From Heptranchias perlo (lineage: Eukaryota): DNA of 64,000 bases. The first letter of the stretch is position 1. Each line of letters begins with the position of its first letter. Below are positions 1 through 57,316 of this stretch, in pieces. Position numbers and translations under genes: made by a program. Below the pieces are notes generated by a model. That model saw only the letters and a program-made list of their open reading frames with translations, searched no databases and was not told where the DNA came from. The stretch is from the NCBI RefSeq assembly GCF_035084215.1, contig NC_090356.1:16616001-16680000 (forward strand), in the 5' to 3' direction.

Positions 1-1198
1 GACTCCAGCAAGGGTCGGTGCCAGTCTCTGTAGAACAGGACTCCAGCAAGGGTCAATACCAGTCTGACTAGAACAGGACTCCAGCAAGGGTCGGTGCCAG
101 TCTCTGTAGAACAGGACTCCAGCAAGGGTCAATACCAGTCACTCTAGAACAGGACTCCAGCAAGGGTGAGTACCAGTCTCTCTAGAACAGGACTCCAGCA
201 AGGGTCAGTGCCAGTCTCTCTAGAACAGGACTCCAGCAAGGGTCAGTGCCAGTCTCTCTAGAACAGGACTTCAACAAGGGTCAGTGCCAGTCTCTCTAGA
301 ACAGGACTCCAGCAAGGGTCAGTGCCAGTCTCTCTAGAACAGGACTCCAGCAAGGGTCAGTGCCAGTCACTGTAGAACAGGACTCCAGCAAGGGTCAATA
401 CCAGTCTCTCTAGAACACGACTCCAGCAAGGGTTGGTGCCAGTCTCTCTAGAACAGGACTCCAGCAAGGGTCAGTGCCAGTCACTGTAGAACAGGACTCC
501 AGCAAGGGTCAATACCAGTCTCTCTAGAACAGGACTTCAGCAAGGGTCAGTGCCAGTCACTGTAGAACAGGACTCCAGCAAGGGTCAGTGCCAGTCTCTC
601 TAGAACAGGACTTCAGCAAGGGTCAGTGCCAGTCACTGTAGAACAGGACTCCAGCAAGGGTCAGTGCCAGTCTCTCTAGAACAGGACTCCAGCAAGGGTC
701 AATACCAGTCTCTCTAGAACAGGACTCCAGCAAGGGTTGGTGCCAGTCTCTCTAGAACAGGACTCCAGCAAGGGTCAGTGCCAGTCTCTCTAGAACAGGA
801 CTTCAGCAAGGGTCAGTGCCAGTCTCTCTAGAACAGGTCTCTAGCAAGTGTCAGTACCAGTCTCTGTTGAACAGGACTCCAGCAAGGGTCAGTGCCAGTC
901 TCTCTAGAACAGGTCTCCAGCAAGGGTCAGTGCCAGTCTCTCTAGAACAGGTCTCCAGCAAGGGTCAGTGCCAGTCTCTCTAGAACAGGACTCCAGCAAG
1001 GGTCAGTGCCAGTCTCTCTAGAACAGGTCTCCAGCAAGGGTCAGTGCCAGTCTCTGTAGAACAGGACTCCAGCAAGGGTCAGTGCCAGTCTCTCTAGAAC
1101 AGGACTCCAGCAAGGGTCAGTGCCAGTCTCCGTAGAACAGGATTCCAGCAAGGGTCGGTGCCAGTCTCTCTAGCACAGGACTCCAGCAAGGGTCAGTG
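1..1198. repeat. 38-bp tandem minisatellite, about 31 copies, runs off the window start
   Basis: The unit GACTCCAGCAAGGGTCAGTGCCAGTCTCTCTAGAACAG recurs with period 38 (starts at 1, 39, 77...) with few substitutions. Confidence 0.97.
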
Positions 1199-1818
1199 TT
1201 GACAGAAGAGGACAGGGAAATACTTTTAAATGGGCAAAATATAACCAAAGCAGTTTAATAATGTGAATATTACTGAAAAGGGATTGAAGTATCAGTAGTT
1301 TGTTCAGATGATGGCTGCCGTGAGTGATTTTGTTGTTTATTGTTGTTGTGTCATGTTTTTTGCTTTTCCACTTTCCCAAAGCAGAGGACATTAATTCCAC
1401 GACAGGAATTATTTTGTTGGCAGGTCCTCTAATGTGTTTACGAGCCATCCTACAAATTGTACTGATTTTTGGAGGGGAGGGATGGCTAGGTTTAGATTTT
1501 GTGTTATACTGTGCCTTCATCATACTGCATGCAAGGTTCACAGTAAGTGGTTTGCTTATAACCTCGTCAATTGAAATCACTGATTAGACAACAAACTCAG
1601 CAGTGTTCATGTGCAAAGCATATTTGTCTTGTATGCTGAAGAGGTTGATGTTGCCAGCAGTCCTTGCGCTGTTATGCAAGCCAGATGTTACAGCTGTGAG
1701 TCTTAAACAGATGTCAATGAATGTGTTTATTTAGCAACCAAATCTTGAAGCCTCCTGGAGGCTAAATCGTGAATTGTCATGACAACCGTAAAAAGCTGCC
1801 TTTTGTTTTGTTTTACAG

Positions 1819-7388: not shown

Positions 7389-7606
7389 ATAGCTGATGAC
7401 AGGCTCAATGCATGAAAAAAGGTCAGGCTTTTAATAGGCCTAGTGTCCTTTTTCTGTTCCTAAAATGTTTAATGTTCTTTGTTGTGAGTTTTGCCACTCA
7501 CATTCTCAGGCAGTCCAATCATTCAGATTGTAAAAGCATAGCAACATTTTACATCATGAATCTGTGACATAAAATTATGTTTTCAATTGATCTACCAATA
7601 ACACAA
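7389..7606. repeat. Outer inverted repeat, left arm (partner 9275-9492)
   Basis: About 218 bp, reverse-complement identical to 9275-9492 with one mismatch seen. Confidence 0.92.
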
Positions 7607-7779
7607 TTGAAGGTCAGTAATACACTACAATCAAAAGAGATTAAACTTATCATCTTCCACCTGTTCTCATGAAAGCAATATTGCAAAGTCACAGGGGCTT
7701 GGACCTTTAAGAATTATTGGTGTTGTCACCATTGCGGTCTAAAAGGATTCAAATATTCCAAGATATTGGACACGAAACA

Positions 7780-7870
7780 AGCAGAAACAAGCAGCCTCCT
7801 CACAGGAAAAGTGGTTCATTCATGTATTTATTGACACTGCTGCATAAAAACCTCATGTTTCTTAAACGGG
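7780..7870. repeat. Inner inverted repeat, left arm (partner 8887-8977)
   Basis: About 90 bp, reverse complement of 8887-8977 with a few differences. Confidence 0.88.
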
Positions 7871-7876
7871 GATGTC

Positions 7877-8194
7877 CATAACCTGCCAGATTATGGGGAC
7901 CCTCTATTTTGCCAACATATACATAGCGTCACTTTTCTTAGCCTCATTGGCATGGATCGTTGTATCGCAGTGATCCACCCAAGAAAATACATCAGGATGA
8001 GAAACACAAACTGCTCGAAGATAACCTCGGCTCTGGTGTGGCTTGTATCTCTGGCCATCATGCTTCCCTTAGTCTTTGCAGGTTCACTGAACACCACTTT
8101 CAAAAACAACAGGACAGCTTGCTTTGAGAATTTCCTCCCTGAGACCTGGAGCAAGAGGATGGCAGCGTATAAAATTGTGGCATTCTTGTTTGGC
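7877..8194 (+). pseudogene. Partial duplicate (TM3 to TM5) of the P2Y/LPAR6-like GPCR
   Basis: Near-identical to 14448-14766. It has a 1-nt deletion (acattagc to acatagc), DRY changed to DRC and CpG transitions, lacks the N- and C-termini, and hits a stop at 8198-8200. Confidence 0.93.
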
Positions 8195-8886
8195 ACGTAA
8201 CTGTTTCTAATTGTTTGTGATAGTTGAGTTCGATTTTGTAATGAACAATGTATTTACTTAAGAGGAAATTAAGTGAACCAAACGGACTCGGGTGCCGTGG
8301 TCCGAGAGCTATTTTTATGTTACACTTGCTGTGTGGGTGAGACAGAAATTAATTTAAAGGTTAGGGGATATCCTGAAGGTGCTGAATCTCGTGTCAGTTA
8401 GTTCTGTTCAGTGGTTAGCTCTTCAGTTTGCTCAGTTCCCACCTACAAAGCAATTTGTTTAACGCACTTTCCATTTGCAGAGGCAGTTGTCTGTGATGGA
8501 AATCATTTGTCGCTGTTGAAATGTGTGGAGTGCAGTTTCCGTCTGAAAAGTGGAATAAATCTATTTGTATCTGAGACACGATTCCTGCTTACTGCATGGG
8601 ATCCCGATTCTCAAAACAAATTCAATCAGTGAAATTACTGCAGAGCTGTGAAGGATCGTATCTGAAAAACTGTTAGCCATACTTGGTGAGTGCTATACAA
8701 TATATTGCTTTTTCTTCTATCATAGCACAGGTTTATCCTATAAGACAGATATCCAGAAAGTAAAAATGTCAATGCTTTTATAAGCAAACAAGTGGACTAT
8801 ATAAAAAGAACTGAAAGTGTTTCATGCCACTTGTACCCATGTTAGATCCTGGTGTTTACTACAGGATCACTGATCCACAGACCTTT

Positions 8887-8977
8887 CCCGTTTAAGAAAC
8901 ATGAGGTTTTTAATGCAGCAGTGTCAGTAAATACATGAATGAACCACTTTTCTTGTGAGGAGGCTGCTTGTTCTGCT
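8887..8977. repeat. Inner inverted repeat, right arm
   Basis: Reverse complement of 7780-7870. Confidence 0.88.
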
Positions 8978-9274
8978 TTTTGTACTGCGCAGATTTAATC
9001 ATACTGGCGATAAGAACGTTTTGCGGCACTGCTGTGGCTTTTGGATAAACGAGTTAAAGATACAGAGATGACCAAATGTTAGTGGATCATTACATCTAGC
9101 TGGAACAACGAAATCTACAGATTTTGTACATCAAAGCTACTGGTTTATGAAGAATGCTTCAACTGTAGAAACTGTGCTGAAAAAATGAAAGTAAATATGC
9201 ATCTGTACAAGTATTGCAGGTCTAACATCTGATATTGGATTGGAACTGACGTGTGATTCAGACTCACTGTACTG

Positions 9275-9492
9275 TTGTGTTATTGGTAGATCAATTGAAA
9301 ACATAATTTTATGTCACAGATTCATGATGTAAAATGTTGCTATGCTTTTACAATCTGAATGATTGGACTGCCTGAGAATGTGAGTGGCAAAACTCACAAC
9401 AAAGAACATTAAACATTTTAGGAACATAAAAAGGACACTAGGCCTATTAAAAGCCTGACCTTTTTTCATGCATTGAGCCTGTCATCAGCTAT
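9275..9492. repeat. Outer inverted repeat, right arm
   Basis: Reverse complement of 7389-7606. Confidence 0.92.
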
Positions 9493-10115
9493 TTTCAGAA
9501 TGTTTATTGCCCTGATTAAACTAAACTATCAGAAGGCAAATACGTGGGAGTCATTTCACTCTTTCTCCTTAACAAGCAAATGTCCATCAGCTAAATAACG
9601 GAAATCACTACATTTACAGCAATTTCGATGATGGCTTCCACCCACCAGAGCAGTGGCCATTGAGGTGGCAGACCAGCATGAGACACTCAGTGTACCCGAG
9701 GAGTGGCTCATGCTGGTGTAAAATTCTGAGCAATTTACTTGGGGAAATGTAACTTAAAATATTACTTGCATTTTTTTAAAAAAGCAATCAATCATTGAAT
9801 CAATGATCTATCTTCTAAATCCAGGCCCTGCGTTTCCTCTGATCCCACTCTGCCACTATATGCATCGCAGGGGCCGCACTCCTGCCCGGCCACTAGTTGC
9901 CTCTCTGACTCCTGGGTTCAGGGGCATATGTCAGGCAGGCACCTGCGTCGTTGGCAGCACAACTGAGGCGCACACCTCAGGTGGGGAGTTGAGTAAACTG
10001 GTTGTGGTGCCTTGCTTCCCGAGTAAGAGGCAGCTGACGGTTTTGAATAGGCGAGTTACCCTGTGATTGTTGCAGTAGGGCAATCCCAGACTTTTAAATG
10101 TCCTATCACCCTGAG

Positions 10116-10430
10116 GGTACGGTAGCATAGTGGTTATGTTACTGGACTAGTAATCTGGAGTCATGAGTTCAAATCCCTAGCAGCTGGGGAATTTAAATTC
10201 AATTAATTAAATAAAATCTGGAATTTAAAAAATACTAGTTTCAGTAATAGTGGCCATGAAACTACAGGATTGTCGTAAAAACCCATCTGGTTCACTAATG
10301 CCCTTTAGGGAAGGAAACCTGCCATCCTTACCTGGTCTGGCCTATATGTGACTCCAGACCCACAGCAATGTGGTTGATTCTTAATTGCCCTCTGAAATGG
10401 CCTAGCAAGCCACTCAGTTGTACAATCTTG
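10116..10430 (+). mobile_element. tRNA-derived SINE-like head forming the 5' end of the adjacent LINE
   Basis: A box TAGCATAGTGG at 10123-10133, B box GTTCAAATCC at 10167-10176, and an anticodon-like loop CT-AGT-AA. A related head lies at about 49500-49683. Confidence 0.8.
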
Positions 10431-13322
10431 CTTAAAAAAAGTCATTAATAAGAATAAAACCGGACGGACCACGAGGCACCAGACACGAAAAGGCAAACCA
10501 AGCCCAATCGACTCTGCAAAGCCCTCCTTACAAACATCTGGGGACTTGTGCCAAAATTGGGAGAGCTGTCCTGCAGACAAGTCAAGCAACAGCCTGACAC
10601 AGCCATACTCTCAGAATCATACCTTTCAGCCAACGTCCCAGACTCTTCCATCACCATCCCTGGGTATGTCCTGTCCAACCGGCAGGACAGACCGACCAGA
10701 GGTGGTGGTGCAGTGATATACAGTCAGGAGGGAGTGGCCGTGGGAGTCCTCAACATTGTCTCTGGATCTCATGGCATCAGGTCAAATATGGGCAAGGAAA
10801 CCTCCTGCTGATTGCAGTCCTCCCTCAGCTGACGAATCAGTCCTCCTCCATGTTAAGCACTGAGGGTAGCAAGGGCACAGAGTGTACTCTGGGTGGGGGA
10901 CTTCAATGTCCATCACCAAGTAGTGGCTCGGTAGCACCACTACGGACCAAGCTGGCCGAGTCCTGAAGGACATAGCTGCTGGACTGGGCCTGTGGCAGAT
11001 GGTGAACGAACCAACACGAGGGGAAAAACCTACTTGACCTCGTCCTCACCAATCTACCTGTCGCAGATGCATCTGTCCATGACAGTATTGGTAGGAGTGA
11101 CCACCGCACAGTCCTCGTGGAGATGAAGTCCAATCTTCGCACTGAGGACACCATCCAACGTGTTGTGTGGCACTATCACTGTGCTAAATGGGTTAGATTC
11201 AGAACAGATCTAGCAGCTCAATACTGGGCATCCATGAGGCGCTGTGGGCCAGCAGCAGCAGCAGAATTGTATTCCAGCACAATCTGTAACCTCATGGCCC
11301 GACATATTCCTCACTCTACCGTTACCAAGAAGCCAGGGCATCAACCCTGGTTCGTAGAGGAGCCTGCCAGGAGCAGCACCAGGCTTACCTAAAAATGAGG
11401 TGCCAACCTGGTGAAGCTACAACTCAGGACTACATGCATGCTAAATAGCGGAAGCAACATGCTATAGACAGAGCTAAGCGATTCCACAACCAACGGATCA
11501 GAGCAAAGCTCTGTAGTCCTGCCACATCCAGTCGTGAATGGTGGTGGACAATTAAACAACTAACGGGAGGAGGAGGCTCTGTAAATATCCCCAACCTCAA
11601 TGATGGTGGAGTCCAGCACGTGAGTGCAAAAGACAAGGCTGAAGCGTTTGCAGCCATCTTCAGCCAGAAGTGCCGAGTGGATGATCCATCTCGGCCTCCT
11701 CCCGATATCCCCACCATCACAGAAGCCAGTCTTCAGCCAATTCGATTCACTCCACATGATATCAAGAAACGGCTGAGTGCACTGGATACAGCAAAGGCTA
11801 TGGGCCCCGACAACATCCCGGCTGCAGTGCTGAAGACTTGTGCTCCAGAACCAGCCGCGCCTCCAGCCAAGCTGTTCCAGTACAGCTACAACACTGGCAT
11901 CTACCTGACAATGTGGAAAATTGCCCAGGTATGTCCTGTCCACAAAAAGCAGGACAAATCCAATCCGGCCAATTACTGTCCCATCAGTCTACTCTCAATC
12001 ATCAGCAAAGTGATGGAAGGTGTCGTCAACAGTGCTATCAAGCAACACTTACTCACCAATAACCTGCTCACCGATGCTCAGTTTGAGTTCCGCCAGGACC
12101 ACTCGGCTCCAGACCTCATTACAGCCTTGGTCCAATCATGGACAAAAGAGCTGAATTCCAGAGGCGAAGTGAGAGTAACTGCCCTTGACATCAAGGCAGC
12201 ATTTGACCGAGTGTGGCACCAAGGAGCCCTAGTAAAATTGAAGTCAATGGGAATCAGGGGGAAAATTCTCCAGTGGCTGGAGTCATACCTAGCACAAAGG
12301 AAGATGGTAGTGGTTGTTGGAGGCCAATCATCTCAGCCCCAGGACATTGCTGCAGGAGTTCCTCAGGGCAGTGTCCTAGGTCCAACCATCTTCAGCTGCT
12401 TTATCAATGACCTTCCCTCCATCATAAGGTCAGAAATGGGGATGTTCACTGATGATTGCACAGTGTTCAGTTCCATTCACAACCCCTCAGATAATGGAGC
12501 AGTCCGTGCCCGCATACAGCAAGACCTGGACAACATCCAGGCTTGGGCTGATAAGTGGCAAGTAACATTTGCGCCAGACAAGTGCCAGGCAATGACCATC
12601 TCCAACAAGAGAGAGTCTAACCACCTCCCCTTGACATTCAACGGCATTACCATCGTCGAATCCCCCACCATCAACATCCTGGGGGTCACCATTGACCAGA
12701 AACTTAACTAGACCAGCCATATAAATACTGTGGCTACAAGAGCAGGTCAGAGCCTGGGTATTCTGCAGCGAGTGACTCGCCTTCCGACTTCCCAAAGCCT
12801 TTCTACCATCTACAAGGCACAAGTCAGGAGTGTGATGGAATACTCTCCACTTGCTTGGATGAGTGCAGCTCCAACACCACTCAAGAAGCTCGACACCATC
12901 CAGGACAAAGCAGCCCGCTTGATTGGCACCCCATCCACCACCCTAAACATTCACTCCCTTCACCACCGGCGCACTGTGGCTGCAGTGTGCACCATCCACA
13001 GGATGCACTGCAGCACCTCCCAAACCCGTGACCTCTACCACCTAGAAGGACAAGAACAGCAGGCACATGGGAACAACACCACCTGCACGTTCCCCTTCAA
13101 GTCACACACCATCCCGACTTGGAAATATATCGCCGTTCCTTCATCGTCGCTGGGTCAAAATCCTGGAACTCCCTTCCTAACAGCACTGTAGGAGAACCTT
13201 CACCACATGGAATGCAGCGGTTCAAGAAGGCGGCTCACCACCACCTTCTCCAGGGCAATTAGGGATGGGCAATAAATGTTGGCCTTGCCAGCTACGCCCA
13301 CATCCCATGAACGAAAAAAAAA
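10116..13322 (+). mobile_element. Near full-length non-LTR retrotransposon (CR1-like group; APE endonuclease + reverse transcriptase), disrupted
   Basis: APE motifs NIWGL, ILSESYL, RQDRPTRGGG, GDFNVHH, LDLVLTN, SDH. RT motifs [26 protein letters not shown] in ORF 11620-12711. The 3' tail GGGCAATTAGGGATGGGCAATAAATG...CACATCCCATGAACG is followed by an A-tract. Several stops and frameshifts. Confidence 0.93.
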
Positions 13323-13331
13323 ACCCTTAGT

Positions 13332-13688
13332 TAGAGTTGCCAACTCTGGTTAGACACGTCCCTAGCGATTTCATCACATGACTACCTGACTCTAATTGCT
13401 CCTGCCATCGGTCACCCAACATGTCCATCCTCGTGGAGCACTGCCTTTCCACGCCAACTGGAAAGCAAACAGACTCTTCATTAGCTGATTGGATGATTCC
13501 CGACTGTGTGTCAAACTGCATTTTTCCCATCTCCAATATTTTTATCAGTAGTAAATGAAGATGAAAAAACACACCATTTTTTTAAATGCCTCTATGATTT
13601 TTCTCCTGGGTTGCTCACAGCAGTGCCCAGGAGATTAATCTTTAATTCCTGGAGACGCCAAGACAATCCTGGAGGGTTGGCAACCCAA
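13332..13688. mobile_element. Non-autonomous DNA transposon (MITE; hAT-like termini)
   Basis: Imperfect terminal inverted repeats tagagttgccaac ... gttggcaaccca; no coding capacity. Confidence 0.6.
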
Positions 13689-14175
13689 CTCTTGCCAGCA
13701 GGGCATAACTTGTGCCCAGTGTTGCTAGAGTGCAAAATTACATATGACGTCATTCCCATATTTGCATAGCAACATAATACACACGCCCTTTTGTGAGTTG
13801 GTGTATTATGTCCTTGCCCCCATGTCACCCTCCCCCATCTTTCAAAATATCCAGATGTTTCCTAATATGGTACCCTTTCACCCAAAGTACATTGTGACGA
13901 CTTTCCTACATCTATAAATGTGTGTTGTTCCCTGGCACACACTTCCCAATACTTCTGTCATTGTCTGTTTGTGATGACGTATGCTTTGTTTGCTTTTTTC
14001 TGTATGATAAATCCTAAATAAAACAATGTTAAAAAACAGCCATTTTCATTGTGTTCCATAAAGATGGATAACAATTCTATTAACATTTAATTTCTGCTTT
14101 ATTATGTGTCCAGATCTCCTGAGTATTACCTTAAAATTCACTCCACTCAGAGGACAACTGGAGGAGGACGAAAAC

Positions 14176-15147
14176 ATGAACAGCTCACAAGAGTTTTTCT
14201 CGCCCTCGAACTGCAGTTACGAGGCTCAGTTCCAGTACTATTTATTTCCAGTAGTCTTCAGCATTGTGTTCATTCTGGGCTTGATTGGAAATGTCTCGGC
14301 CTTGTGCCTACTTACCAAGAAAATGAAGAAAGCCTCCCCATCCTATGTGTACATTACAAACCTGGCTGTTGTAGACATCATTTACATTTGCACCTTGCCC
14401 TTCAGAATCTACTACCACATAAAAAAGAACGACTGGCCCTTTGGGGACATAACCTGCCGGATTACGGGGACCCTCTATTTTGCTAACATATACATTAGCA
14501 TCGCTTTCCTTAGCCTCATTTGCATGGATCGTTACATTGCAGTGGTCCACCCAAGAAAATACATCAGGATGAGAAACACAAACTGCTCGAAGATAACCTC
14601 GGCTCTGGTGTGGCTTGTATCTCTGGCCATCATGCTTCCCTTAGTCTTTGGAGGTTCACTGAACACCACTTTCAGAAACAACAGGACAGCTTGCTTTGAG
14701 AATTTCGACCCTGAGACCTGGAACAAGAGGATGGCGGCGTATAACATTGTGGCATTCTTGTTTGGCTTCATCATTCCGTTTACAGTCATTATGATATTTT
14801 ATCCTTTAGCAGCCAAGCAAATAGCCCAGCTTCAAAGTAGCATCCACAAGGAAAAGGCTTTGACAATGATCCGGGTCATTTTGGTGATCTCAGTTGTTTG
14901 TTTTGTCCCTTATCATGTCACCAATTTATTCTATTTCCTCACACGCTTGGACTTTATTCAAAACTGTGCATTCAGCAGCTTTCTCTACAAGACCCGGCGA
15001 GTTACCATGGCCTTAGTCAGTCTCAACAGCTGCTTAGACCCTCTGATATATTACTTTACAACCTCCCATTTTCAGCTAAATTATGATAGAAAAAAGAGAT
15101 CGCTTCAACAGGTTTACAGCATTTCCTGGCGCAAAACTGTAAGCTGA
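14176..15147 (+). CDS. Class A GPCR of the P2Y/non-EDG LPA receptor group (LPAR6/LPAR4-like), single coding exon, 323 aa
   Basis: Seven hydrophobic segments with GN (TM1), NLAVVD (TM2), WPFG..C, DRY, FIIPF, CFVPYH and NSCLDPLIYYF (DPxxY is typical of P2Y-like receptors). N-glycosylation sites at MNSS and NCS. ATG at 14176 is preferred; an in-frame ATG at 14104 lies upstream of a likely acceptor at 14150. Confidence 0.92.
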   Translation: MNSSQEFFSPSNCSYEAQFQYYLFPVVFSIVFILGLIGNVSALCLLTKKMKKASPSYVYITNLAVVDIIYICTLPFRIYYHIKKNDWPFGDITCRITGTLYFANIYISIAFLSLICMDRYIAVVHPRKYIRMRNTNCSKITSALVWLVSLAIMLPLVFGGSLNTTFRNNRTACFENFDPETWNKRMAAYNIVAFLFGFIIPFTVIMIFYPLAAKQIAQLQSSIHKEKALTMIRVILVISVVCFVPYHVTNLFYFLTRLDFIQNCAFSSFLYKTRRVTMALVSLNSCLDPLIYYFTTSHFQLNYDRKKRSLQQVYSISWRKTVS

Positions 15148-15164
15148 AACAGATGGACACATAC

Positions 15165-15595
15165 GAACGTACAAATTAAGAACAGGAGTAGGCCTTTCGG
15201 CCCCCCGAGCCTGCTCTGCCATTTAATAAGATCGTGGCTGATCTGATTCTGACCTCAACCCTACTTTCCCATCTACCTACTATAACCTTTGACTCCCTTG
15301 TTAATCAGGAATCTATCTAACTCAGCCTTAAAAATCTTCAATGACCCTGCCTCCACCGCTCTCTGGGGAGGGGAGTTCCACAGACGCCCCTCAGAGAGAA
15401 AAGGTTTCTCCTCATCTCCGACTTAAATGAGGGACCCCTTATTTTTAAACTGTGTCCCCTAGTTCTAGTCACTCCCACAAGGGGAACATCCTCTCGACAT
15501 CTACCCCTTCTAGTCCCCTCAGAATCTTACTCTCATTCTTCTAAACTCCAGTGTATACAGGCCCAACTTGTCCAACCTTTCCTCATAAGATAATA
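15165..15595 (-). mobile_element. CR1-type LINE 3' fragment
   Basis: The tail motif aacaggagtaggcc...gagcctgctc...gctgatct is shared with copies at about 29700-29810 and 37341-37545. Confidence 0.75.
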
Positions 15596-25400: not shown

Positions 25401-28400
25401 ATGGTGCTCACTGAGACCCAACTCTTTAACAGCCTGTTCAGGTGAAACCAGGCGAAGGCTCTATATGTAAAAGCAACAAGAGCGACTGACATTAATTTTT
25501 TTTTGCTTTCAAGTAAACCCCAAATTTACTTTAAAAATACATGAAACATACATTACTCACATTATCCTTTATAATCAGTGTACCATGCATTAGTTTAGGT
25601 TTCTTTGGATCAGGTAACGGACCTATAGAACAGGAAAAAAGTCATACAGACATCACAGCAAATATCAATCTCAGTAACTGTGTTTACATATCTAATCACT
25701 CACATTTCATGAAAACTTTGTTTTGTTACATTATTTTATTACATTGAAGTTTTGGTTCCAATGCTCTGCATAAAATTGTAATGAACTTTATTTTAATGCA
25801 TTGAACCTCATTATAACAATGTAATTTTGTGGCTTCTCAGCTGCACTCACTAGATCCTGGTCAAGACCCATGTTCCTGGATCTCCAGGCTGTTACTTATG
25901 CACCTGAATTGTGTTTCAAACTAGCCCGGTCTCTGAATACAAATAGAGTGGTAACCTCCTGCATTACTGTCCAACACTGGCCTGCAACTCTGCTGTCTTT
26001 GAGCCCTGGTCAGTATGCTGAACAATCAAAATGCCAGTGATGGAAATGGAAAGTTCTTCAATTTGTGCTCCGAGTGTCGGCATCAGCTACTCTCAAGTCA
26101 GCTAATATACAGTGAAGCTATTTCTATATTACCTCAATAATGTTTCTTAACCTACACACAATAACAAAACTTCCACTGCACTTATGAGATATTTCCATTT
26201 CTGATTTCTTCTATTCTTGTGGTCGCACAGTGTTAATGAAACTTGGTCTCAATTGGTGCAGATAAGGGGATGTTTTTTATTGTACAGATTCGCTCTCGCT
26301 AGAAACTGAATTGAAAATACCCAAACTATTTCACTTAGGTCCCTTGCAGATATCAGAGATGATGTTAATTCCATTAGCTACACTGGAATCCAAGCCTCAG
26401 AGGTGAAAGGACAATGCACTAAAGTGTCACTTACTCTACCACCCTTGATTTCCTGCATTCTTAGACTTACTTTCTGGAACACTCCATTGATATCACCCCT
26501 GTAGTTATAAAACCGCATATCATCCAAATCATTGTGAACAATGCCACGGGAGATCGACTGCTGTCTAAAACGTTTTGCAATGCATCCATCACACTTTAAA
26601 CTGAACATCCTTTAATGAAATATATCAAAAAAGAAAGTCGGTCATTAGCCACTAACTGACCTCAGAATATACCTAGCAATTAGACCTTGGACCTTAAAGG
26701 GACAGGCCAAGTTATAAACTGCTCCACCTTTGCAGAATAATATATTGTGCATTATCTTGTATAACGTTCCTCTCCTTATTAGACTATCATCTAATTTACT
26801 ATAGCAATATCATGTGAGATCTGCCAGTGGTTTAAAAATAACACCTCCCTTGAACTCTTCTGAAGACAGCAAAATTAAACCATCTGCTCATATCTTTATT
26901 GGAATTTAATTTCTAAATTTTTACATTGTATTTATTGCTTTTAGTTGGTGTCAACCTTGGCTCAGTGGTAGCACGCTCGCCTTTGATTCAGAAGGTTGAG
27001 GATTCAAGTCCCACTCTAGAGACTTGAGCACGTAATCCAGGCTGGCATTCAGTACAGTACTGAGGACTGTCAGAGGTGCCACCTTTTGGATGAGACGTTA
27101 AGCCAAGGTCCCATCTGCCCTATCAGGTGGACATAAAAGATCCCATGGCACTATTCGAAGAAGAGCAGAGGAGTTCTCCTGCTGTCATGGCCAATATCCT
27201 TCAACCAACGTCACTAAAACAGATTTTCTGGTCATTATCTCATTGCTGTTTGTGGGACCTTGCTGTGCGCAAATTGGCTGCTGCATTTTCATTACAACAG
27301 TGACTACACTTCACAAGTACTTCATTAGCTGTAAAGCACTGTGGAATGTCCTGGAGTCATGAAAGGTGCTATATAAATGCAATTCTTTCTTTAGTTTGCC
27401 CCCCGTTTCTGAAGCGAGGACTCTTGCTGGGAAATGTTTCCACAGGTGCTGGTCGTCCTCTGATACCTCGCTCAAGTAGTTCTCCTTCATAAGTGAGTGC
27501 CGATAATAAGCGCTGGCCGGCTATTCGACACTGGGGAGCATCACTGCTGAACCCCAGCCTTTCCTCGGTCAATATCCCAATGCATCCATTTTCCAGTAGA
27601 TATTACTGGAAAGTGGTCATAAACAGAATGCCTACACGATTATTTCCCTGGAGCAAGCTGTAGCCCCGCCTAGCTGAGTTCAGCTAACTCAGCACAGACC
27701 AGTGATCAAACCTCGGGCCTTCTTGGCCTGCGTGGTTCAGTTCCATAGCGGGCAACTGGCCAACTAAGCCATGAGCCAACCATACTTTTATTTATAAATA
27801 CAATTTCAGGTCTTTAAAAAAATGAGGCCATTTTCTAAATCTTAAGGAAAGACCAATTCTATTACCAAGAGTTGAATCCCTCTTCAGCAGGCCGAGAGAA
27901 ATATCCACAGGAATATTGGGATTAGTAACTATTGTAGCTGTCTCTCCATTGGCTGGCATGTAGCAATTAATACCTAGACAAAAAACAGGTAAATAAATAT
28001 TAAAAGTCTTCTTTCCAGGACATTACACTAAAAGTGTATTTAAAATTACACTAGCAACAAAATATAGTTTACAAAGGTTAAAAGTATGAGGGAAATTTCA
28101 CCCTGGCAGTGGCATGGCAGGACATGGCATGTGGAAGTGCAAACTGCTAGGACAGATAGGCCAGCAATAATGATACTGGGAAGGGCTTCCATCTGCTGGA
28201 GGAATGAGTGGGCTTATTCCTCACTGGGGATGGGAGGAAATTGCACATCTGAGGGGCATGTGTGGGCCCAGCAACATCAGATAATATTCATGAACTAATT
28301 GCTACTCAACAGGAACAAAGAAAAAGCAACATCAAAGATAACTTTTCAACAAGCAGAAGTGTGTGAGGTACATACGGTTTCCGCTTCATTTCAGCTGCGC

Positions 28401-34400: not shown

Positions 34401-37400
34401 GCACAACCAAATGAATTGAAACAAATCAAAACAACAGAGCAAAATACAACAGCAACATACCATTGGTCCGGGGTTGTCAGCGTAGGTCCTATCAAATGTC
34501 TTGATGTGTTTGAACTCAAACATATTTCTCTGCACAAATGTCTTCCTAATTTTTTGATTGGTCCACGTAATAAATAATTTATAATAATGATTGGCTTTTT
34601 CAGTCAGTCCAGTTGAGAAGTAAATGGGTGCCTTCAAGTTCATTCGCTCCCTGCATGTAGAAATGACAATCAAATTCTGAAACAGTCTTTATCAGTTACT
34701 GTATTATCATGGATGTTTTAGCTGTGGTAAGTAATCTTCCTCAGGTTATTAAGTTATTTTCGTACAATCCATAGTAATGCAAATTATATGTGGTCTGTGG
34801 AAGGAGTGGGTTTAATGATCTAAATGGTCTTTTCTCATTAAGTTCTTAGGACATTTCCAATCTCTGCCTCTGAGAATGTTGGCTGTGCTACTAGAAATTT
34901 CTTTATGGTTGCAAAAGATTTCAGAGCTCCTATTGCCATTCTAGATATAGGTGTCAGCCTTGGCTCAGTGGTAGCACTCTCACCTCCAAGTCAGAAGGTC
35001 ACAAGTTCAAGTCCCACTCCAGAGACTTAAGCACAAAATCTAGGCTGATACTTCAGTGCAGTACTGAGGGAGTGCTGAGGGAGCACTGTCAGAGGCACCA
35101 TATTTCAACAAATTGCATTTTTATAGCACCTTTAACATAGTAAAAGGCGCTTTCAGATGAGTCGTTAGTTCAAGGTCCCATCTGCTCTCTCAGGAGGACG
35201 TAAAAGATCTCATAGTACTATTCAAAGAAGAGGAGGGGAGTTCTTCTGGTATCCTGGGCAATGATCATCCCTCAACCAACACCACTATAACAGTGTTTTT
35301 CATTGCTGTTTGTAGGACCTTGCTGTGTACAAATTGGCTGCATCATTTCTCAACATTATAACAGTGACTACATTTCAAAAGTGCTTCAATAGCTGTGAAG
35401 CACTTTGGGATGTCCTGGGGTTATGAAAGATGCTATATAAATGCAATTTCTTTCTTTTTAACTCTACATCTAAGTTGGCACCCGATCAACAAGATCTAGA
35501 TCAAGGACAATTCCACGGCCAATATGGAGTCATGAACAGGCTTGGCAATATAAGCTGGCAACTAGAGTCTCCAATCAAATGTTGTGAATCTCAGACCTGC
35601 ACAGTGGTTTCTCTATCACCTACTGCTGCTGTACCTTCAAATAACACCTTACAAAAACAACAATTTTTAAAACTAGCACTTAAGCTCAAACCTACAGCCT
35701 AAAAGCCTTGCCAGCGACACCCATTTCCTGAGAATGAATATAGTCATTTTTTTAAATGACGAACAGACAGTGTTCTAACACAAAGTAATGCAGTCCCTTG
35801 TAAATTTATTTTAGTAGTTCTCACCCCTGGATGTAAAAAGTTTTACATTACTAGTGGATCTCCCAAACGTTGATTCATGGTGAGATGGAGGATATAATGT
35901 GTTTTAATAACAGGGTGTTATGCCACTTAACGTACAATATATTATTACACAATAATCTTCTCTGCAGTCAGTGCTGGAGAAAAATAAAAAATAAAAACAC
36001 ATTCAAATAAAAGAGCAAGTACTGGGCTGGGAGGAAATGGCAGGAAGTAGGGGATTGGTTTGTGGGAAACAGTAGGTGCAAAAACCAGACCCGTGAGGGA
36101 ATCGGGGGGAGGAAGTTACCATCTGGAAGTAATCATGGGAGTACTTGGAGACCGGGGACATGATTTTAGCTCGGGGCTAGGAACCCAGCACATGGGTAGA
36201 CATTCGCACGGGGAACCCAGAAGTCAAGTGAGTGTGTTGCAATCTCTGATCACAACTCAACTGAAGGTAAGTATTTGTGCTTCTGAGTTTCCCACCCGCC
36301 AGGCAGCCAGATTGACAGGCTGGATGCCTGTCGGGAGGGAAAGGAGCCGCAAATCAGAGAGGAAGGAGGGAAAGAGAGATCGAGGACCGTGGAAGTAATT
36401 GGTGGGTAGGGGCGTGGACGACATTAGGTGGGCCTTGGAGAAGATCGGGGCGGGGGGGGGGGGGGGTCGGTCGGCCGATTGCGGGGGTCCTGTTGGTCTA
36501 GGTGAGCTTGTTGGGCCTGGATGAAGCACTCCTGCTATTCCTGGCCCACAAGCATTGTAATAAAGGCACTCACCTCATGGATCCAGCCTTTCTCGCCTGC
36601 TTTCACGTGACGTGAATCAGAAGCGATGGGAAATCCAGGCAGGTACGGTTAAATTAGTTTTACATTTCTAATACACGAAAAATTAGTGCCTCAACTATCG
36701 CAATGAGGTACATTGCCCCTTTGAGTATCGACCCGCCTGCTTTAAGTCGGGATGGGACTTCCGGGTTTCTGTTGCGCGGACATCCTAATGCGCCTGGGTT
36801 AAATCCGGAAGTTTTTTTTTATTTGTTCATGGGATGTGGCCGTCGCTGGCGAGGCCAGCATTTATTGCCCATCCCTAATTGCCCGAGGAGGTGGTGGTGA
36901 GCCGCCTTCTTGAACCACTGCAGTCCGTGTGGTGAAGGTTCCCCCACAGTGCTGTTAGGTAAGGAGTTCCAGGATTTTGACCCAGCGATGATGAAGGAAC
37001 GGCGATATATTTCCAATTCGGGATGGTGCGTGACTTGGAGAGGAACGTGCAGGTGGTGTTGTTCCCATGTGCCTGCTGCCCTTGTCCTTCTAGGTGGTAG
37101 AGGTCATGGGTTTGGGAAGTGCTGTCGAAGAAGCCCTGGCAAGTTACTGCAGTGCATCCTGTGGATGGTACACACTGCAGCCACTGTGCGGCGGTGGTGG
37201 TGAGGGTGAATGTTTAGGATGGTGGATGGGGTGCCAATCAAGCGGGCTGCTTTATCCTGGATGGTGTCGAGCTTCTTGAGTGTTGTTGGAGCTGCACTCA
37301 TCCAGGCAAGTGGAGAGTATTCCATTCACAATCCTGACTTAATAAGAACATAAGAAATAGGAGCAGGAGTAGGCCAATCGGCCCCTCGAGCCTGCTCCGC

Positions 37401-40400
37401 CATTCAATAAGATCATGGCTGATCTGATCCTAACCTCAAATTTAAATTCATGTCCAATTTCCTGCCCGCTCCCCGTAACCCCTAATTCCCTTTACTTCTA
37501 GGAAACTGTCTATTTCTGTTTTGAATTTATTTATTTAATGATGTAACCTTGTAGATGGTGGAAAGGCTTTGGGAAGTCAGGAGGTGAGTCACTCGCCACA
37601 GAATACCCAGCCTCTGATCTGCTCTTGTAGTCACAGTATTTATGTGGCTGATCCAGTTAAGCTTCTGGTCAATGGTGACCCCCAGGATGTTGATGGTGGG
37701 GGATTCGGCAATGGTAATGCCGGTGAATGTCAAGGGGTTAGATTCTTTCTTGTTGAAGATGGTCATTGCCTGGTACTTGTCTGGCACGAATGTTACTTGC
37801 CACTTATCAGCCCAAGCCTGGTTGTTGTCCCCATTTCTGACCTTATGTTGCAGGGAAGGTCATTGAGGTGTTGGTGCCGGGATGCAGTCCCGCTGAAGAA
37901 TTCAACAATTTTTACTACCCACTCGCCTCCAGCCCACCCATTCTTGGGGATTAAAATGACCCCCCTGGAGTCTGTGACTTGGAAGCATTCAGTGTGGCTG
38001 GGTCTTCAGTGCATGTGGTGGGGGAGGAGAAAGATAGTGTCAACAGTTGGAGGTACAGAAGGCTGGAGTATGGGTTCCATCAGGACTCATTGGAAGCTCG
38101 TGACTCATCAGAAGCACGTGAGATTGCTGAGGTTCAGCAGCACTTCAGCAAGGCCTATGGTTTGATTTGCAAGCATGGTGGAGGGATGGGGAATAGAGGG
38201 GCTCCTGGGTTTGGTAATATTAGAGGGGAGGATCTTGGGATTTAGCGGCATTGCTCCTATTTTCCAAAGTGCTGTTGGATATTTTTTATAGCTTTATAGC
38301 TATCCCCTCTCACACTTTCAGAGGACATATTTCAACAGCTAGGTGGGGCGGAGGGAGAGGGGGCCTCATAAGAGGCCACAGTATGAGGAACAGTAGGTAT
38401 ACGAGGGTTGTAGATTGGAGGAGGACTGCAGGAGGATACAAAGATAGGGAGTGGTAAGGCTATGAAGGGATTTAAACACAAGGAATAGAATTTTAAACTT
38501 GAGGTGTTGGGGGACCGGGAGCCGATGCAAGTTAGAAAGGACAGGGGTTATGGGTGCTGGATAGCATAAGAGCAGCAGAGTTTTGGATGCGCTGGTGTTT
38601 AGAGAGGTTGGAGGATGGGAGGCCAGCCAGGATAGCATTGGAATTGTTGAGGCAGAATGTGACAAAGGCATGGATGAGGGTTTGGACAACAGGTGGGCTG
38701 AGCAAGGGAGCAGAGGCGGGTGACGTTATGGAGGTGAAGTAGATTAATCTTTGTGATGGAGAGGACTTGAGTTGGAAGCTCAGCTCGGGGTCAAATAGGA
38801 CAGCGAGATTGCAAACAGTCTGGTTCAGCCTAAAACAATGGCCAGGAAGGGGAGAAAGAATCGGTGGGGGCTGAAGACGACGGCTTTGGTCTTCCCAATG
38901 TTTAACTGGGGCAAACCACGACTCATCCAAGACTGGATGTTGGAAAAGCAGTCTGACAACACAGAGGCAGTGGGAGGGTCGAGCGAGGTGGTGATGAGGT
39001 AGAGCTGGATGTCATCAGTGGATGCTGAACCCGTGGCTGTGAATGATGTCAGCCAAGAAACATATTAAAACTTAAAAAAATAAAAAGCTATAATATCACA
39101 TTTAACTAACGAGCGAGAACAGGAAAGGGGGGCGGAGACAAATGCAGCTGAAAGGAAATTGTTTAAAACAATATTTTTTGCTACACTTTATATAAAATAT
39201 ACCAGCATTTAAAACAGTATATTCAAACAATATAAAGTTAATACTGCAGTAAAGGGTTAGTGCTAACATGTGAACGGCTTTATTTGTTTGAGCACCAAGG
39301 TGAATTAACTGATTTTTTTGTAAGTGACTGCTCCTGGAAGCCTGGTACTGTCGCGATCTAAGGGTTAAGGCAGGATATATGAACAAATACAACTGATTGC
39401 CAGCTGGTTTTCATAACTTTCAGAATTTTTGTAAACTTGGGCAGCAAATGCTGGCCTGAATTTTTACTCCCTCTGTGACTAATCTCCACCCACCGCCTTT
39501 CAGCCCTCATGGAAAATAATCTCCAACATCTTTAACCACGCCATTTTTTTGAAAGCTGACAAAAATTACCAGAAGGTTTCCAGCAGAATGCAAAGCTCCT
39601 GGGCTCGTCCGAGGGCAAATACAGGAATCAGCACCTATTAAAATGAAGGCCTGTCAAAATGCATTCGTCACAACATTCCACGTTTTGTTAAAAATTCTAA
39701 ACAAACATTTTTTAAAAAATTACATTAATTCACATTTTATTCAGGGGGTTTCCCTGGCTGCCTAGTGGGTAAAGGCACTGTCGGGTGTAGCACTAAGCCA
39801 GACAGCCCATTGAATCCCAGTTATACTTGCTGGTCTATGCCGAGAGTTAGCTGATCTCAGTCCAGTTGCTGCAGTTAGCCTCAGTAGCCCCAGGCTAGGG
39901 AGGGGGGAAAAAGACAGGGTTTCTGCTTCGAGTTGCTGACTCATGCTGGAAAGATGGCGGGAGAGCAAAAGCTCAGGCTCCTCCATGCAATAACCTGCTC
40001 AACTTGGCTTTCATTCCCCAGGTACAAAGCCACAGGAGATCCACTAGTAATATATTAAAAATCTTACATCAGCACGAACTTCCTGTCAACTATTTAATTA
40101 TAAATGGAACATTTAAAATGGTAATTGCAGCACCACTACTGACAGGAGGCTGTGATCACCACATGACAGGTTTGCAGAGGCCGTTTCCATTTTAAATGTG
40201 GACACAAGCATTTATAATAGAAGAATACATAAAAATAAGGACAGAATGTATAACTTTAAAATGGGAAATGAACTACATCTGCTCACTCTGGTCCAATTAC
40301 CCCTCCCCCACCCCATGCTCTAACCCTGCTTCATTAGAAGACTATGCTTAGTTTTGACTACCTGTGTGCAATGCCATGGGAGATTGACTAGTACACGTTA

Positions 40401-42745: not shown

Positions 42746-45700
42746 AAACATTTACACTATATATATATATATATAAAAAAAATATATATAAACTTTTACA
42801 CTTTTTGTCAAATTAGTATATATTTTTATATAAACTGTTTCTTTAATATATTTTATACATTTACACTATTTGTCTGATGAATATACATATATAGATCTCC
42901 ATCCATCGGACAGTATACTATTTGTGGACACTGGTCTCTGAGCAGCTGTACCACTGACCCGCACTAGACGCCAATATCCGCAGTACAATGCTCCCGTCCA
43001 ATCTAACTTTAACTCCCTCCCTTGCTGCAAAGTGATTGGTAGCTGACGTCACCTCAGCAGCATCTCCACCAGAGAGCAGTGGTTTGGTGCGCGGACGGAA
43101 TGATGGCGTGCGCGGCACACAACAAACTGCTGTGCAGCCACGCACGCGCGCAGCTTAAAGGGAACAGTGCTGATAACATATTAAACTTAACCTGAAAAAT
43201 TAATTCTGCGGCTTCTTTTCAAATCATCTAGAAAAACTCAAAGAAACTCAGACATCGATTTACACCATGAGAAAATAAAGCCTTCCAGTTGTGAGTCAGC
43301 ATGTCACTCACTCTGACAGAATCCTACTGATATATGACTATGCCATCGCCCTGGAATCAATCGAGTGATCATTCTGGTGCTTATGAGAATTGCACAAGAA
43401 GCTATGCCAACTACAGAGACAGCAGTCATGCAAGACCTGCCATTTCTTCCCCACCTCCCCTCATTCACCTGCAGGCTTGCGAAACAGATTATAATTTAAA
43501 CTGGGTAATTTCATGAGTCAGTGGTATGTGGGTTTCAGATCCAGCTAATGAATCTCGTATCTTGCATCCAAATCAAAAGCAACAGGGTAACACATTAAAA
43601 GTGGCCAACTGGCTTGAAGACAAGAAATCTGTGAGCTGCTCCATATGAAAAAAACCAAGCTGGTTGAGAGATGACAAAGTCCATTATAGATGTGAATTGC
43701 CAAACTTCATTGTGCCCCCTTTATAAGACAGTACTGCTCTGAACAGAAATATATCCCATTTATGTTGAAGGGTGGATTCCATAAAACCTGTGACAACTGG
43801 GGCATATGCAATCTTGGGCATGCATTGTTCGAAAGTTCACTTCTGGCCACAGAATGGAGAAAGTCCACAGCTGTACAACTGGTCTAATAGACAGGCTGAG
43901 TCCTCAGCTTCCCTGAGACCAGGAAGAAAGGCTGGCTAGGCCAGAAGCAAGTTTTTACATTTAATGCTGGTGGCTCCGGTGAAGAAGCCAAGCACAACCT
44001 CTTCAGTGGGTTTCCGTAGTCCTCCAAAAGCAGTAGCACCAACTCATCTACATTCAGCAATGCTGTCGAATTTGGGTCAGCTACCAATGGCGGTACAATA
44101 AAAAGGACATATACGGAATGTAGGGTTATGTACCCTTATAAAGATGTGTGCTACTGAGACACCTCCTGGATGCCTGTGGTATTACAAATATTCCATGTTG
44201 CACCATAAACATTTTCAATAAAATAGAAAGTATAGTGAAGGGTATACACCCAAAACACTGGCCTGGAATTTCCTCTAATGGTGTAACTGGCAAGTTACTC
44301 ATGAACCTTTAAATATCTATGCACTAGAACGCCCAGGTCTCTCTCTTTCTCCACCTGCTTTAATGCTTTTCCCTAAAGGGTGTACGTATGTTCAGCATTC
44401 ACCCTGCCCACATGCATAACACTGCACTTTTCAAAGTAAAACATCATTTGCCAGTCACAAGCCCAATCCCCCACGCATTAAGATCCGCCTGATGCAATTG
44501 AGCATCGTCTACAGTCCTGACACTCGCACAAATCTTAGTATCATCTGCAAACTTGCAGATCGTGCCCCTAACACCTACACCTACATCTAGATCAAGATCA
44601 AGATCATTAATAAACATAGCAAAGAGCAACGGTCCTAACACCGATCCCTGCGGGACACCACTTTTTTTGTCCCTTTACCTCTTTGCTCATTGAAAAGTAA
44701 TTTCCCTCAGAAGGTTCGGTCTTTCCCGGGTTTATTTTCTGCTCAGCATTTGCTTAAGTTCCTTTTTTGTGCTCCTCCCTTGAGTTAGAAAGAACTCTGT
44801 TGTTGCCAATACATCTGTAGTTTAAAATGTCTCCTGCAAGTTGGAGGCTTTGACTCAGCGCCCACCTCCGCCAGTACTCAGCGATCTGAGCGGAAAGCAG
44901 TGGGCATGGAAATTCAGCATCCAGCCCTATCACTGCAAAAACAAAATCACCTGACACAATATAGTGGCTCGGGAGAGTGCAATCAGAGGGTGGAGACTGG
45001 TTTAAAAAAAAATTATGAGCCTCAGGGAAGCTCTGGGAGGCTAAGTTATATCCATTGCTCAGCATTGAGGAAAAGCAGTAATGTTGTAACATACAGAGTC
45101 ATTCGCCCGCAAACTGCAATTGAAGTAAATAGGATTTGAAGCACAAAAAGAATGAGACGCAATTCAGACTCACCCTAAATGTCGATCTGGTGTCATGTTG
45201 TAATCGCCCTGCAGATATTTTAAAACAAAATAAATACAATGAGAGAGAAAAAAAAAATTACAGGCCAACTTACAAGAAAACTCAAGTAAATTTTTATATT
45301 TTGTTGATGAGGCTTGTGACCCGTTCTCAGCGTCCTTGTACTTTAAATAAATTGAAGACCCAGTCTTTGCTTTCAGTCAGGCTTCAGTGGAGCGCTACAA
45401 ATAACCTCAGCACATCCTGGGCTAGGCAGGCAGGAAAGGCCAGCCTAAGTTCCACCCCTGATTGCTATCCAGTGGCTCGTGCTGGAAAGTGTGGATGTGT
45501 GAACGCTGAGTGCGAACATGATTTAATTTGGTTGTGATGCCCCCCACGACTCAGTAGCCTGCCAGCACTCACAGTGTAAACTCGCACGTGACAATGGCTA
45601 TTGCAGGCCACCAAATACCGACAGAACCATAGTCCAGCATCAGTCAACGGCTTCAGTAAAGGTGAAAGTAAATAAAAAAATAAACGGGACAAAAGTGGCT

Positions 45701-49499: not shown

Positions 49500-49683
49500 G
49501 GGTATGATAGTGTTGTGGTTATGTTACTGGACTAGTAATCCAGAGACCTGGACTAATTATCCAGAAAACGTAAATTCAAATCCCACCATGGCAGCTTATG
49601 AATTTGAATTCAGTTTAAAAGAAAACTGGCGTCAGTAAAAAAATGACCATGAAGCGGTCAGGTTGTTGTAACAACCCAACTAG
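49500..49683 (+). mobile_element. tRNA-derived head fragment, same family as 10116-10430
   Basis: gtggttatgttactggactagtaatccagag...ttcaaatccc; perfect ctgga/tccag anticodon-like stem. Confidence 0.7.
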
Positions 49684-50317
49684 TGCAGTCTCAATCTTTA
49701 TTCATATGCAATCTGCTCCTTCAAAAACTGAATTATCCAATTATTTAAAATTAAGCAACATAATTAACACTAGCATTTTTGAGTGCTTAAAAAATTAAAC
49801 TATCCGACAATTTGAATGGCTTTTGCCGCGAGTTTTGGAGAGGTGCAGCACAGATTCAGATAGTAAACCTGCACAGGGCAGAAAGGCAGATGAGGGAGGC
49901 CTCCTTTCATTGGTATTAATACAAAATCACAGCTAAAGCCTTCAGATTAACGTTCAGGTCATTTTAAGCAGTGCTGTTAAAAACACAACTCGCTTTATTG
50001 TCTCTTTCATCAGTTTACACCTTTATAAACAGGCACAACGTGCGATTTGTTGGAGGGGGAGGATTATAAATAACGGGGAACTTTTAATGATGAAGGTGAC
50101 AGACTGTGGGCTCGGGTCCGCTCTCCCCCACGACATCACCCGGTACCGTTTGGGACAGGCCGCCCCCCCCGCTGCGGGTTTTAAACACGACGGCCCGCTC
50201 AGTGACACACTCTCCCCCGGGCACAAGCCTGGAGCCCGGCCCGACCCGCTCCCCCTCACAAGAGGCAGCCACTAACTGACCAGAGCCGCCACTACAGTCT
50301 CCCAGCCTCAGGCCTAC

Positions 50318-50365: not shown

Positions 50366-50497
50366 GTGACTGACGTGGGACTGAACCAATAGGACGTCCG
50401 ATTCCGAAAGACCAATCACGATGGAGCGAAGGCGGGACTTCCTGTCAGGGCGGCCAATAGCAGCCCCAGCGCTGCGGGGCCGGTTTCCGGTTTGAAG
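50366..50497. promoter_or_regulatory. Bidirectional INTS11/CPTP promoter in a CpG island (island about 50100-50600)
   Basis: CCAAT boxes at 50386, 50412 and 50454; TGACGT (CRE-like) at 50371; GC boxes at 50431 and 50448; ETS-like ACTTCC/TTCCGG; YY1-like AAGATGGC over the CPTP ATG. Confidence 0.8.
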
Positions 50498-50616
50498 ATG
50501 GCTGACGCGGAGAGGTTCAGTTTGAGCGAGGTCTTGGAGTCGTTCAGGAGCTGCCTGACTGACAGTGGGGAGGTGCTGCAAGAGCACTACTTGAATGGAT
50601 GGAAGGGGCTGGTAAA
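50498..50616 (+). CDS. CPTP: Ceramide-1-phosphate transfer protein (GLTPD1), coding exon 1
   Basis: MADAERFSLSEVLESFRSCLTDSGEVLQEHYLNGWKGLVK followed by a GTGAGT donor (phase 2); matches the CPTP N-terminus (WKGLV). Confidence 0.93.
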
Positions 50617-50787
50617 GTGAGTGATTTAAAACAACCTCGTCATTGTAATCAGCTTCACTTAGCGTGAGGGCAAAGTACAAAAACTGACCTTTTTTTTAAA
50701 ATGGTGTACGAAATACTGTTAAAGAGACAATGACTATTTGTTGGGGAGGGTGAGGAGATGTGTGTGCGGCCTCTCCCGGTAATCCTG

Positions 50788-50905
50788 TTCACCTTCACCG
50801 CACCGACTGCAGCGGTTCAAGAAGGCGGCTCACCACCACCTTCCCAAGGGCAATTAGGGATGGGCAATAAATGCCGGCCTCGCCCACATCCCATGAACGA
50901 ATTTT
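50788..50905 (+). mobile_element. Short 3' tail copy of the APE-RT LINE family
   Basis: accttcacc...gcagcggttcaagaaggcggctcaccaccac...gggcaattagggatgggcaataaatg. Confidence 0.8.
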
Positions 50906-56668: not shown

Positions 56669-57316
56669 CCCAGGAAGAGTCATTGCTTTCTCAGCAGGAG
56701 AGAAAAACATGGAAAAAAAGGGCAACAAAAAAAAAATTGATTTCACAATTAAACATGAACTTTAATTTTGTTAGGAACACCAGGGGCTCGATTTTAGGGT
56801 CGGGTTACCTGCGGGTTTCCAGCGGGGGGGCCCCGAAAATCCCGATCTCCGATCACGTGACCGGATTCGGACGAAATCCCGGCCACTTCTGGGTACCGCG
56901 CTGACGTGCGGGGCTGCACGTGAAAGCCCCGCTGGTGGGAATCCCGCAGGCAATTAAAGCCAGCGGGGTTCCACTTGAGAGCACTTAACTTGCTCGTTGT
57001 GGTCAGTTAATGAGCTGAAGCAGCTGTCAAAAGAGGAAGTGTGGGATTTTAGGTTCAACGCAGTCAGTTTCCCACACTGGGGGAAACAGTACCCTTCAAA
57101 CCAGGCGTGTTGCAGCCAGCAGCCTGTGGCAGGTGCCAAGGTGCGCTCCACGGGGGAGAGCCCACACCCACGCAGGAGGCCACCGCGTCACATAGGGCAA
57201 CCCCTGCCCTCCACCAACCCCCGCCAAGCCAGAGGACAGACCGACACGAAACCGCAGCCCCAGTCCGAGGACCCACCCACCTACCCTGCACAACCCCTCA
57301 CACCAACACCTGCCAG

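Follow-up and report, generated by a model that had tools for sequence, protein, structure and literature searches.

An elasmobranch Zenon LINE that shares a tRNA-like head and a body with its partner SINE: a coding retroelement that may be transcribed by Pol III

In descriptions of non-LTR retrotransposons, such as PMC10886601, transcription is split between Pol II for LINEs and Pol III for SINEs. Several described systems contain a short element made of the 5' and 3' ends of a longer partner, among them the bipartite LINE derivatives and SINEs Bov-A/Bov-tA, RIME and Vingi and the SINEs with RTE-derived bodies (PMC5786205), as well as the R2 SIDEs, composed of the two ends of their autonomous partner (PMC3414825). 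In these systems, as far as the available text of PMC5786205 goes, a tRNA head is found only on the non-autonomous element or is absent, whereas in the elements considered here it sits on the coding element itself. The sharks and rays have a tRNA-derived SINE, HE1, whose 3' tail is common with a CR1-like LINE (PMC3747384 and PMC4824008), and the latter source also has V-SINEs known from cnidarians to vertebrates. The Zenon LINEs of elasmobranchs have themselves been reported, and PMC13343379 describes Zenon as lacking ORF1 and ending in poly-A tails. Because the main text of that paper never mentions tRNA (nor HE1 or HER1, and SINE only once, in the title of a reference), the tRNA head of the coding Zenon appears to have gone unremarked; in the literature searched, to which Repbase, the Dfam notes and most subscription journals did not belong, no tRNA-headed autonomous LINE is described.

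The element at 10115-13323 of the 64-kb window (the whole stretch of DNA analysed) is a decayed 3.2-kb full-length copy of an elasmobranch Zenon LINE. It shares with the published elasmobranch Zenon elements a length of 3.2-3.3 kb, a single APE-RT ORF, the lack of ORF1, the poly-A and closely similar first 400 letters, and differs from them (PMC13343379) in nothing of substance, so that it is a member. Having poly-A and no ORF1, it does not fit canonical CR1, which is characterised by an esterase ORF1 or clustering with ORF1-bearing CR1 and by the lack of poly-A, and the 20 shark CR1 5' cells shown are, by eye, unrelated to it. Its parts and flanks are as follows.

10108-10115, plus strand: left candidate target-site duplication (TSD), ACCCTGAG, the last G common with the element head
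10115-10185, plus strand: tRNA-like head, with A box at 10123-10133, anticodon-like arm at 10142-10158 and B box at 10167-10175
10186-10266, plus strand: AT-rich spacer, common to the consensus heads and the lone head at 49500
10267-10422, plus strand: conserved body, present in LINE and SINE alike, with the SINE joints departing at 10419-10422
10423-10532, plus strand: LINE-specific A-rich linker and leader
10518-11380, plus strand: APE endonuclease region and linker, by tblastn with the related proteins P0002, P0005, P0016 and P0024
11449-12711, plus strand: longest open stretch, 420 aa, with the RT domain at 11947-12693 and in-frame stops at both ends
12712-13262, plus strand: C-terminal ORF2 region, with a deletion near 13011; the frame closes at TAG 13260-13262 within the shared tail
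13252-13323, plus strand: 3' tail common with the SINE, from contig joints, with A10 at 13314-13323
13323-13330, plus strand: right candidate TSD, ACCCTTAG, the first A common with the A-tail

The first 308 nt of the element consist of the tRNA-like head and the conserved body, both common to the LINE and the short partner SINE. The sequence-only reading had described the beginning as tRNA-like, and all the pieces it named were found within 10115-10185: an A box (TAGCATAGTGG) and a B box (GTTCAAATC) at a tRNA-like spacing of 44 nt, and an anticodon-like loop, CTAGTAA. Such a pair of boxes at such spacing occurs only twice on the two strands of the window, the second time in a different SINE at 34961; that SINE belongs to a second tRNA-headed family with two copies (34950-35448 and 26947-27384). 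The A box starts 8-9 nt from the 5' end of the family at 10115, the position of tRNA +1. Compared by eye with the SquAca consensus, this copy has lost ~22 nt between the boxes, and its body (10267-10422), which is presumably of the V-SINE/HE1 type, a type marked by an 80-bp V domain and the HE1 tail, is identical to SquAca_Zenon-1 in 151 of 156 letters. ARAGORN and Rfam called no tRNA at the element head or at 49500 and no cloverleaf was recognised; decayed SINE heads usually lack a recognisable tRNA cloverleaf. Folding of head, body and tail gave no significant structure (z -1.1 to -1.8).

The coding part holds APE and RT in one ORF2. The endonuclease match starts at 10500-10533, homology to aligned related APE-RT proteins reaches about 13260, and the RT is recognised by Pfam (RVT_1, E 6e-36). 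With frame changes near 10760-10870, 10921, 11020, 11355 and 13011 and in-frame stops at 11446 and 12709, the copy is dead. The distance from the 5' end to the endonuclease is 418 nt, matching the roughly 400 bp first estimated, and since no ATG-started frame longer than 31 codons begins in 10116-10620, there is indeed no ORF1. The initial view that this lack is unusual does not stand: PMC13343379 reports no ORF1 in any Zenon or Rex1 element surveyed, nor in L2 clade B, and the ORF1-less aspect of the locus is therefore not new. The RT search returned only relatives at 35-46%, none from the family of the element; a protein search with the endonuclease N-terminus gave no match, the 21-nt pattern of the endonuclease start was found in 0 metagenome stretches, and the viral collection yielded one weak 12-residue match.

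The flanking repeats had been proposed as a candidate TSD matching in 7 of 8 letters. They are present at the two ends of the element, and their support is moderate because the first A belongs also to the A-tail and the last G also to the head; among 20,000 random junction pairs, matches of at least 8 letters with at most one mismatch were found in 0.1-1.1%, and matches of at least 7 letters in 0.4-3.2%, depending on slack. Directly after the right TSD lies a short MITE-like element with inverted ends (13332-13687, by eye). This is the only full-length copy in the window, which also holds three 5'-truncated copies and a lone head.

62368-63924, plus strand: 5'-truncated copy, the longest of the three, matching the element in 1435 of 1546 aligned columns (92.8%), with 111 mismatches
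36814-37866, minus strand: 5'-truncated copy, interrupted by another repeat
50791-50901, plus strand: short 3' LINE fragment, starting at the equivalent of 13196
49500-49690, plus strand: diverged lone head of ~185 nt, without body or tail

The copies ending at 36814 and 63924 have A-rich ends as well. The solitary head at 49500 had been correctly picked out from the letters; what had been read as a solitary tail at 50788 is instead the fragment at 50791-50901, the end of a 5'-truncated LINE rather than a solitary SINE tail, because it starts upstream of the SINE tail junction.

The surroundings contain several other features. A single-exon rhodopsin-family GPCR ORF (Pfam 7tm_1) occupies 14062-15147 on the plus strand, and the middle of this ORF recurs 6.6 kb upstream as a 319-nt copy at 94% (7877-8194, plus strand), enclosed by nested inverted arms within 7389-9492 (7389-7606/9275-9492, 218 nt, 99.5%; 7776-7870/8887-8981, 95 nt, 95%), which represent an inverted duplication or a capture-type element. 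The repeat inserted into the minus-strand Zenon copy is short (37342-37545) and has a relative directly behind the GPCR ORF (15161-15258). A tandem array of a 38-nt unit runs off the left end of the window (1-1288), a short RT fragment of a different LINE lies at 44262-44674 on the minus strand, and a GC-rich promoter-like stretch at 50400-50620 is followed by an ATG-started exon-like segment, with the Zenon fragment at 50791 just downstream (by eye).

For the extent of the head-LINE junction we turned to the first 400 letters of the Zenon consensuses in Supplementary Table 2 of PMC13343379 and to public contigs. All seven elasmobranch Zenon consensuses, from five species (CarCar, white shark; RhiTyp, whale shark; ScyCan, catshark; three from SquAca, spiny dogfish; HypSab, a ray), start with the same head, body and GTTGTA-linker, and SquAca_Zenon-3 continues into an endonuclease start identical to that of the element. 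Two hagfish and one coelacanth Zenon consensuses lack head, body and linker in their first 400 letters. Six 10-mers from the B box matched in six rows of at least 909 consensus 5' cells, all of them elasmobranch Zenon; the B box of the ray contains a one-letter gap and was hence missed by the 10-mers. The head-APE junction thus recurs in seven of seven consensuses besides the genomic copy here, and neither a junction confined to this locus nor full-length copies with another 5' UTR and an ORF1 came to light. Together with the contigs, these comparisons indicate that the junction is a family-wide feature rather than a local accident, in line with the sequence-only reading of a chimera moving as one unit.

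Contigs from four of 24 runs, one each from organisms A-D, were aligned to 9900-13500. Those of all four runs cover the element; the left flank is spanned only in X1 (depth 34; a 675-nt contig with 2 differences), and for that reason X1 may be from the same or a close species and not independent at this locus. Foreign sequence before 10115 is seen in 526 contigs of X1 and 918 of X10, and 385 contigs of X10 leave the element at 13323; SINE copies may account for most of this accumulation of 5' ends at 10115. In X1 the linker at 10444-10488 reaches a summed depth of 72,000-84,000, the unique flank having 34 (depth here is not copy number), and the linker is multi-copy there, with two small indel variants carried by 82 and 35 contigs. 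The other three runs have linker depths of 300-460 (at 10444) and 0-90 (at 10488). Past 10422, 383 contigs of X10 continue with a diverged linker similar to those published. Among the contigs listed from the four runs, none bridges the head to the endonuclease.

The same contigs define the partner SINE. In four of four runs body-to-tail joints lead from 10419-10422 to 13251-13260, and the SINE is therefore the LINE minus linker and ORF. The joint falls exactly where LINE-specific sequence begins, which agrees with the earlier suggestion that related SINEs are internal-deletion derivatives; one SINE form retains GTA and 10 linker-like letters before the tail, and these retained letters suggest that this subfamily is a deletion product of the LINE. 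The head and body were more likely first derived from a SINE and then taken by the LINE, since V-SINEs span cnidarians to vertebrates and other Zenon elements are without the head. The SINE form in the contigs fits the description of HE1, being tRNA-derived with a tail common with a CR1-like LINE. The partner SINE is presumably HE1, and the LINE HER1; in work by Ogiwara from 1999 and 2002 the two reportedly have only the tail in common, whereas in the Zenon elements here the head and body are common to LINE and SINE as well.

Four or more T's in a row terminate Pol III. The T4+ check proposed from the sequence alone found no such run on the sense strand of the element (0 TTTT in 3,200 nt, against 16 A4, which are TTTT on the antisense strand, 9 C4 and 7 G4) and, by eye, none in the first 400 letters of the seven elasmobranch Zenon consensuses, while TTTT is present, also by eye, in the same part of 10 of the 20 shark CR1 cells shown. 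On the sense strand there are 11 runs of at least three T's where 23 would be expected (P 0.0007). The probability of zero TTTT is 0.007 by base shuffle and 0.044 by dinucleotide shuffle, and with codon permutation 0.055 for five pieces totalling 2,514 coding nt and 0.075 for the RT stretch alone. No other TTTT-free stretch on the two strands of the window is as long as 10096-13520, the first TTTT downstream of the element being at 13521; a T-poor, GC-rich repeat at 57033-59960 likewise lacks TTTT, over 2,928 nt of the minus strand. The copy at 62368 has one T5, probably specific to that copy. All of 80 related metagenome ORFs (the longest ORF per locus) contain at least 2 TTTT, and all 50 with at least 700 aa contain at least 5, these 50 being a lenient control because all are more T-rich (0.24-0.36 vs 0.20); the related ORFs, which are distant (31-44%), carry TTTT at a median of 1.04x their own codon-permutation expectation. 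The deficit is consistent and strand-specific, yet each strict test is borderline. The idea that T avoidance shows in a low Phe content was rejected, the RT stretch having 14 Phe and 29 relatives 11-24.

For a long mRNA made by Pol III, translation is a difficulty. As had been noticed, an in-frame ATG near the endonuclease is missing: none of the seven ATGs in 10116-10620 is in frame with it. Where related loci have a clear endonuclease start (28 of 80), 27 have an in-frame Met upstream. By eye, six of the seven consensuses have ATG where this copy has ATA (10454-10456). Only the ray consensus can be read through this stretch without gaps; there the ATG precedes the N codon of NIWG by 92 nt, is out of frame with it, and starts a short frame that overlaps the beginning of the endonuclease. 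In SquAca_Zenon-2, a consensus with gaps, the ATG appears to be in frame, which may be an artefact of consensus building. No start further upstream is conserved, as the A-rich linker varies in length between species. Two other candidates for a conserved start were rejected, ATG 10368 in the SINE body, whose frame differs among consensuses and meets stops in several (by eye), and an in-frame TTG at the body-linker boundary, in frame in three of five species. Judging from these sequences, initiation may be non-AUG or internal, or may proceed by a -1 shift or by reinitiation from the conserved upstream AUG. R2, whose endonuclease is of a different class, is the best analogue for how an uncapped single-ORF Zenon RNA could work. 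It too has a single ORF and an RNA that does not come from its own Pol II promoter (it is a co-transcript of rRNA), and IRES-type initiation has been proposed for it (PMC3414825); it differs in its use of host rDNA transcription and a ribozyme, in site-specific insertion and in having no tRNA-type promoter.

We propose, with a probability of about 0.55, that the element is a dead copy of a single-ORF Zenon whose full-length form has the head and body of the partner SINE and is likely transcribed by Pol III from that head. According to this scenario, an ancestral elasmobranch Zenon would have taken the 5' part of a V-type SINE, probably via template switch or recombination. The A and B boxes would recruit TFIIIC/TFIIIB, and Pol III would read 3.2 kb, meeting no terminator until the flank. 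The uncapped RNA would then be translated by one of the AUG-less, frameshifting or reinitiating routes considered above, ORF2p would bind the shared tail and insert LINE or SINE RNA by target-primed reverse transcription, and at least some SINE subfamilies would arise by internal deletion of the LINE. The parts of this proposal are not equally firm. The architecture of elasmobranch Zenon, with head and body joined to a coding LINE, we consider secure. Pol III transcription of the full-length template RNA is a motivated reading of the sequences, to which we give somewhat better than even odds. The complete version, an autonomous coding LINE family that would have been Pol III-driven throughout shark and ray history, with 3.2 kb purged of terminators, uncapped AUG-less translation and a SINE produced by internal deletion, falls a little short of an even bet.

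Some explanations would do away with a family-wide chimera, making the junction a chance neighbour, a nested insertion, a template-switch product formed anew at each insertion or an artefact of consensus building. The window does hold one full-length copy only, and the listed contigs include no bridging one; the same junction in seven independently built consensuses from five genomes, in addition to the genomic copy, largely refutes these explanations, and per-insertion switches would yield variable junctions on the LINE side. A rival with more weight, which we rate as less probable than the Pol III reading, accepts the family-wide chimera and has its LINE RNA made by Pol II, which would start either at a promoter within the head or body or in host introns and read through; the A and B boxes would then matter only for the SINE, and recombination or recurrent deletion would keep them similar. 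PMC10886601 describes autonomous non-LTR elements as transcribed by Pol II, 39% of whale shark CR1-Zenon-like LINEs lie within introns according to bioRxiv 443036, a capped RNA would ease translation, and codon-aware nulls leave the TTTT deficit no more than borderline. Against this, the 5' end coincides with tRNA +1, the two boxes can be recognised in the sharks as well as in the ray, and beyond composition the strand specificity of the TTTT deficit has no Pol II explanation.

A division of labour, in which Pol III makes the template RNA and ORF2p is supplied in trans from capped Pol II read-through of other copies, would avoid the translation of uncapped RNA, and the shared tail shows that the enzyme acts in trans on the SINE. 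It also explains, though only in part, why the RNA starts at tRNA +1, is poor in TTTT and has no AUG in frame. We think it improbable: it leads one to expect weak selection for an intact ORF, yet the family is found in five species, with intact-ORF2 counts such as 3/612 and 1/1419. Runs X15-X24, guessed to be RNA, contain at most 0.21 of the words and are not evidence of expression. An exact B box within up to 900 nt upstream was found in 0 of the 36 related loci (of 80) with an endonuclease-like motif, some of whose positions are false. ARAGORN called no tRNA in 53 of 80 related loci, a result that is uninformative because it also misses the head of the element.

In the textbook split LINEs are coding and transcribed by Pol II, and SINEs are non-coding and transcribed by Pol III; a LINE running from a SINE promoter would, if true, break that split. 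It would also mean a natural 3.2-kb Pol III message requiring cap-free translation, in a high-copy vertebrate LINE. The shared architecture lets a SINE that has a head as well as a tail arise in a single step, and would link what is presumably the HE1/HER1 pair of sharks to Zenon. Even if Pol II should turn out to transcribe the LINE, repeat annotation in sharks will confuse the 5' ends of Zenon LINEs with SINEs.
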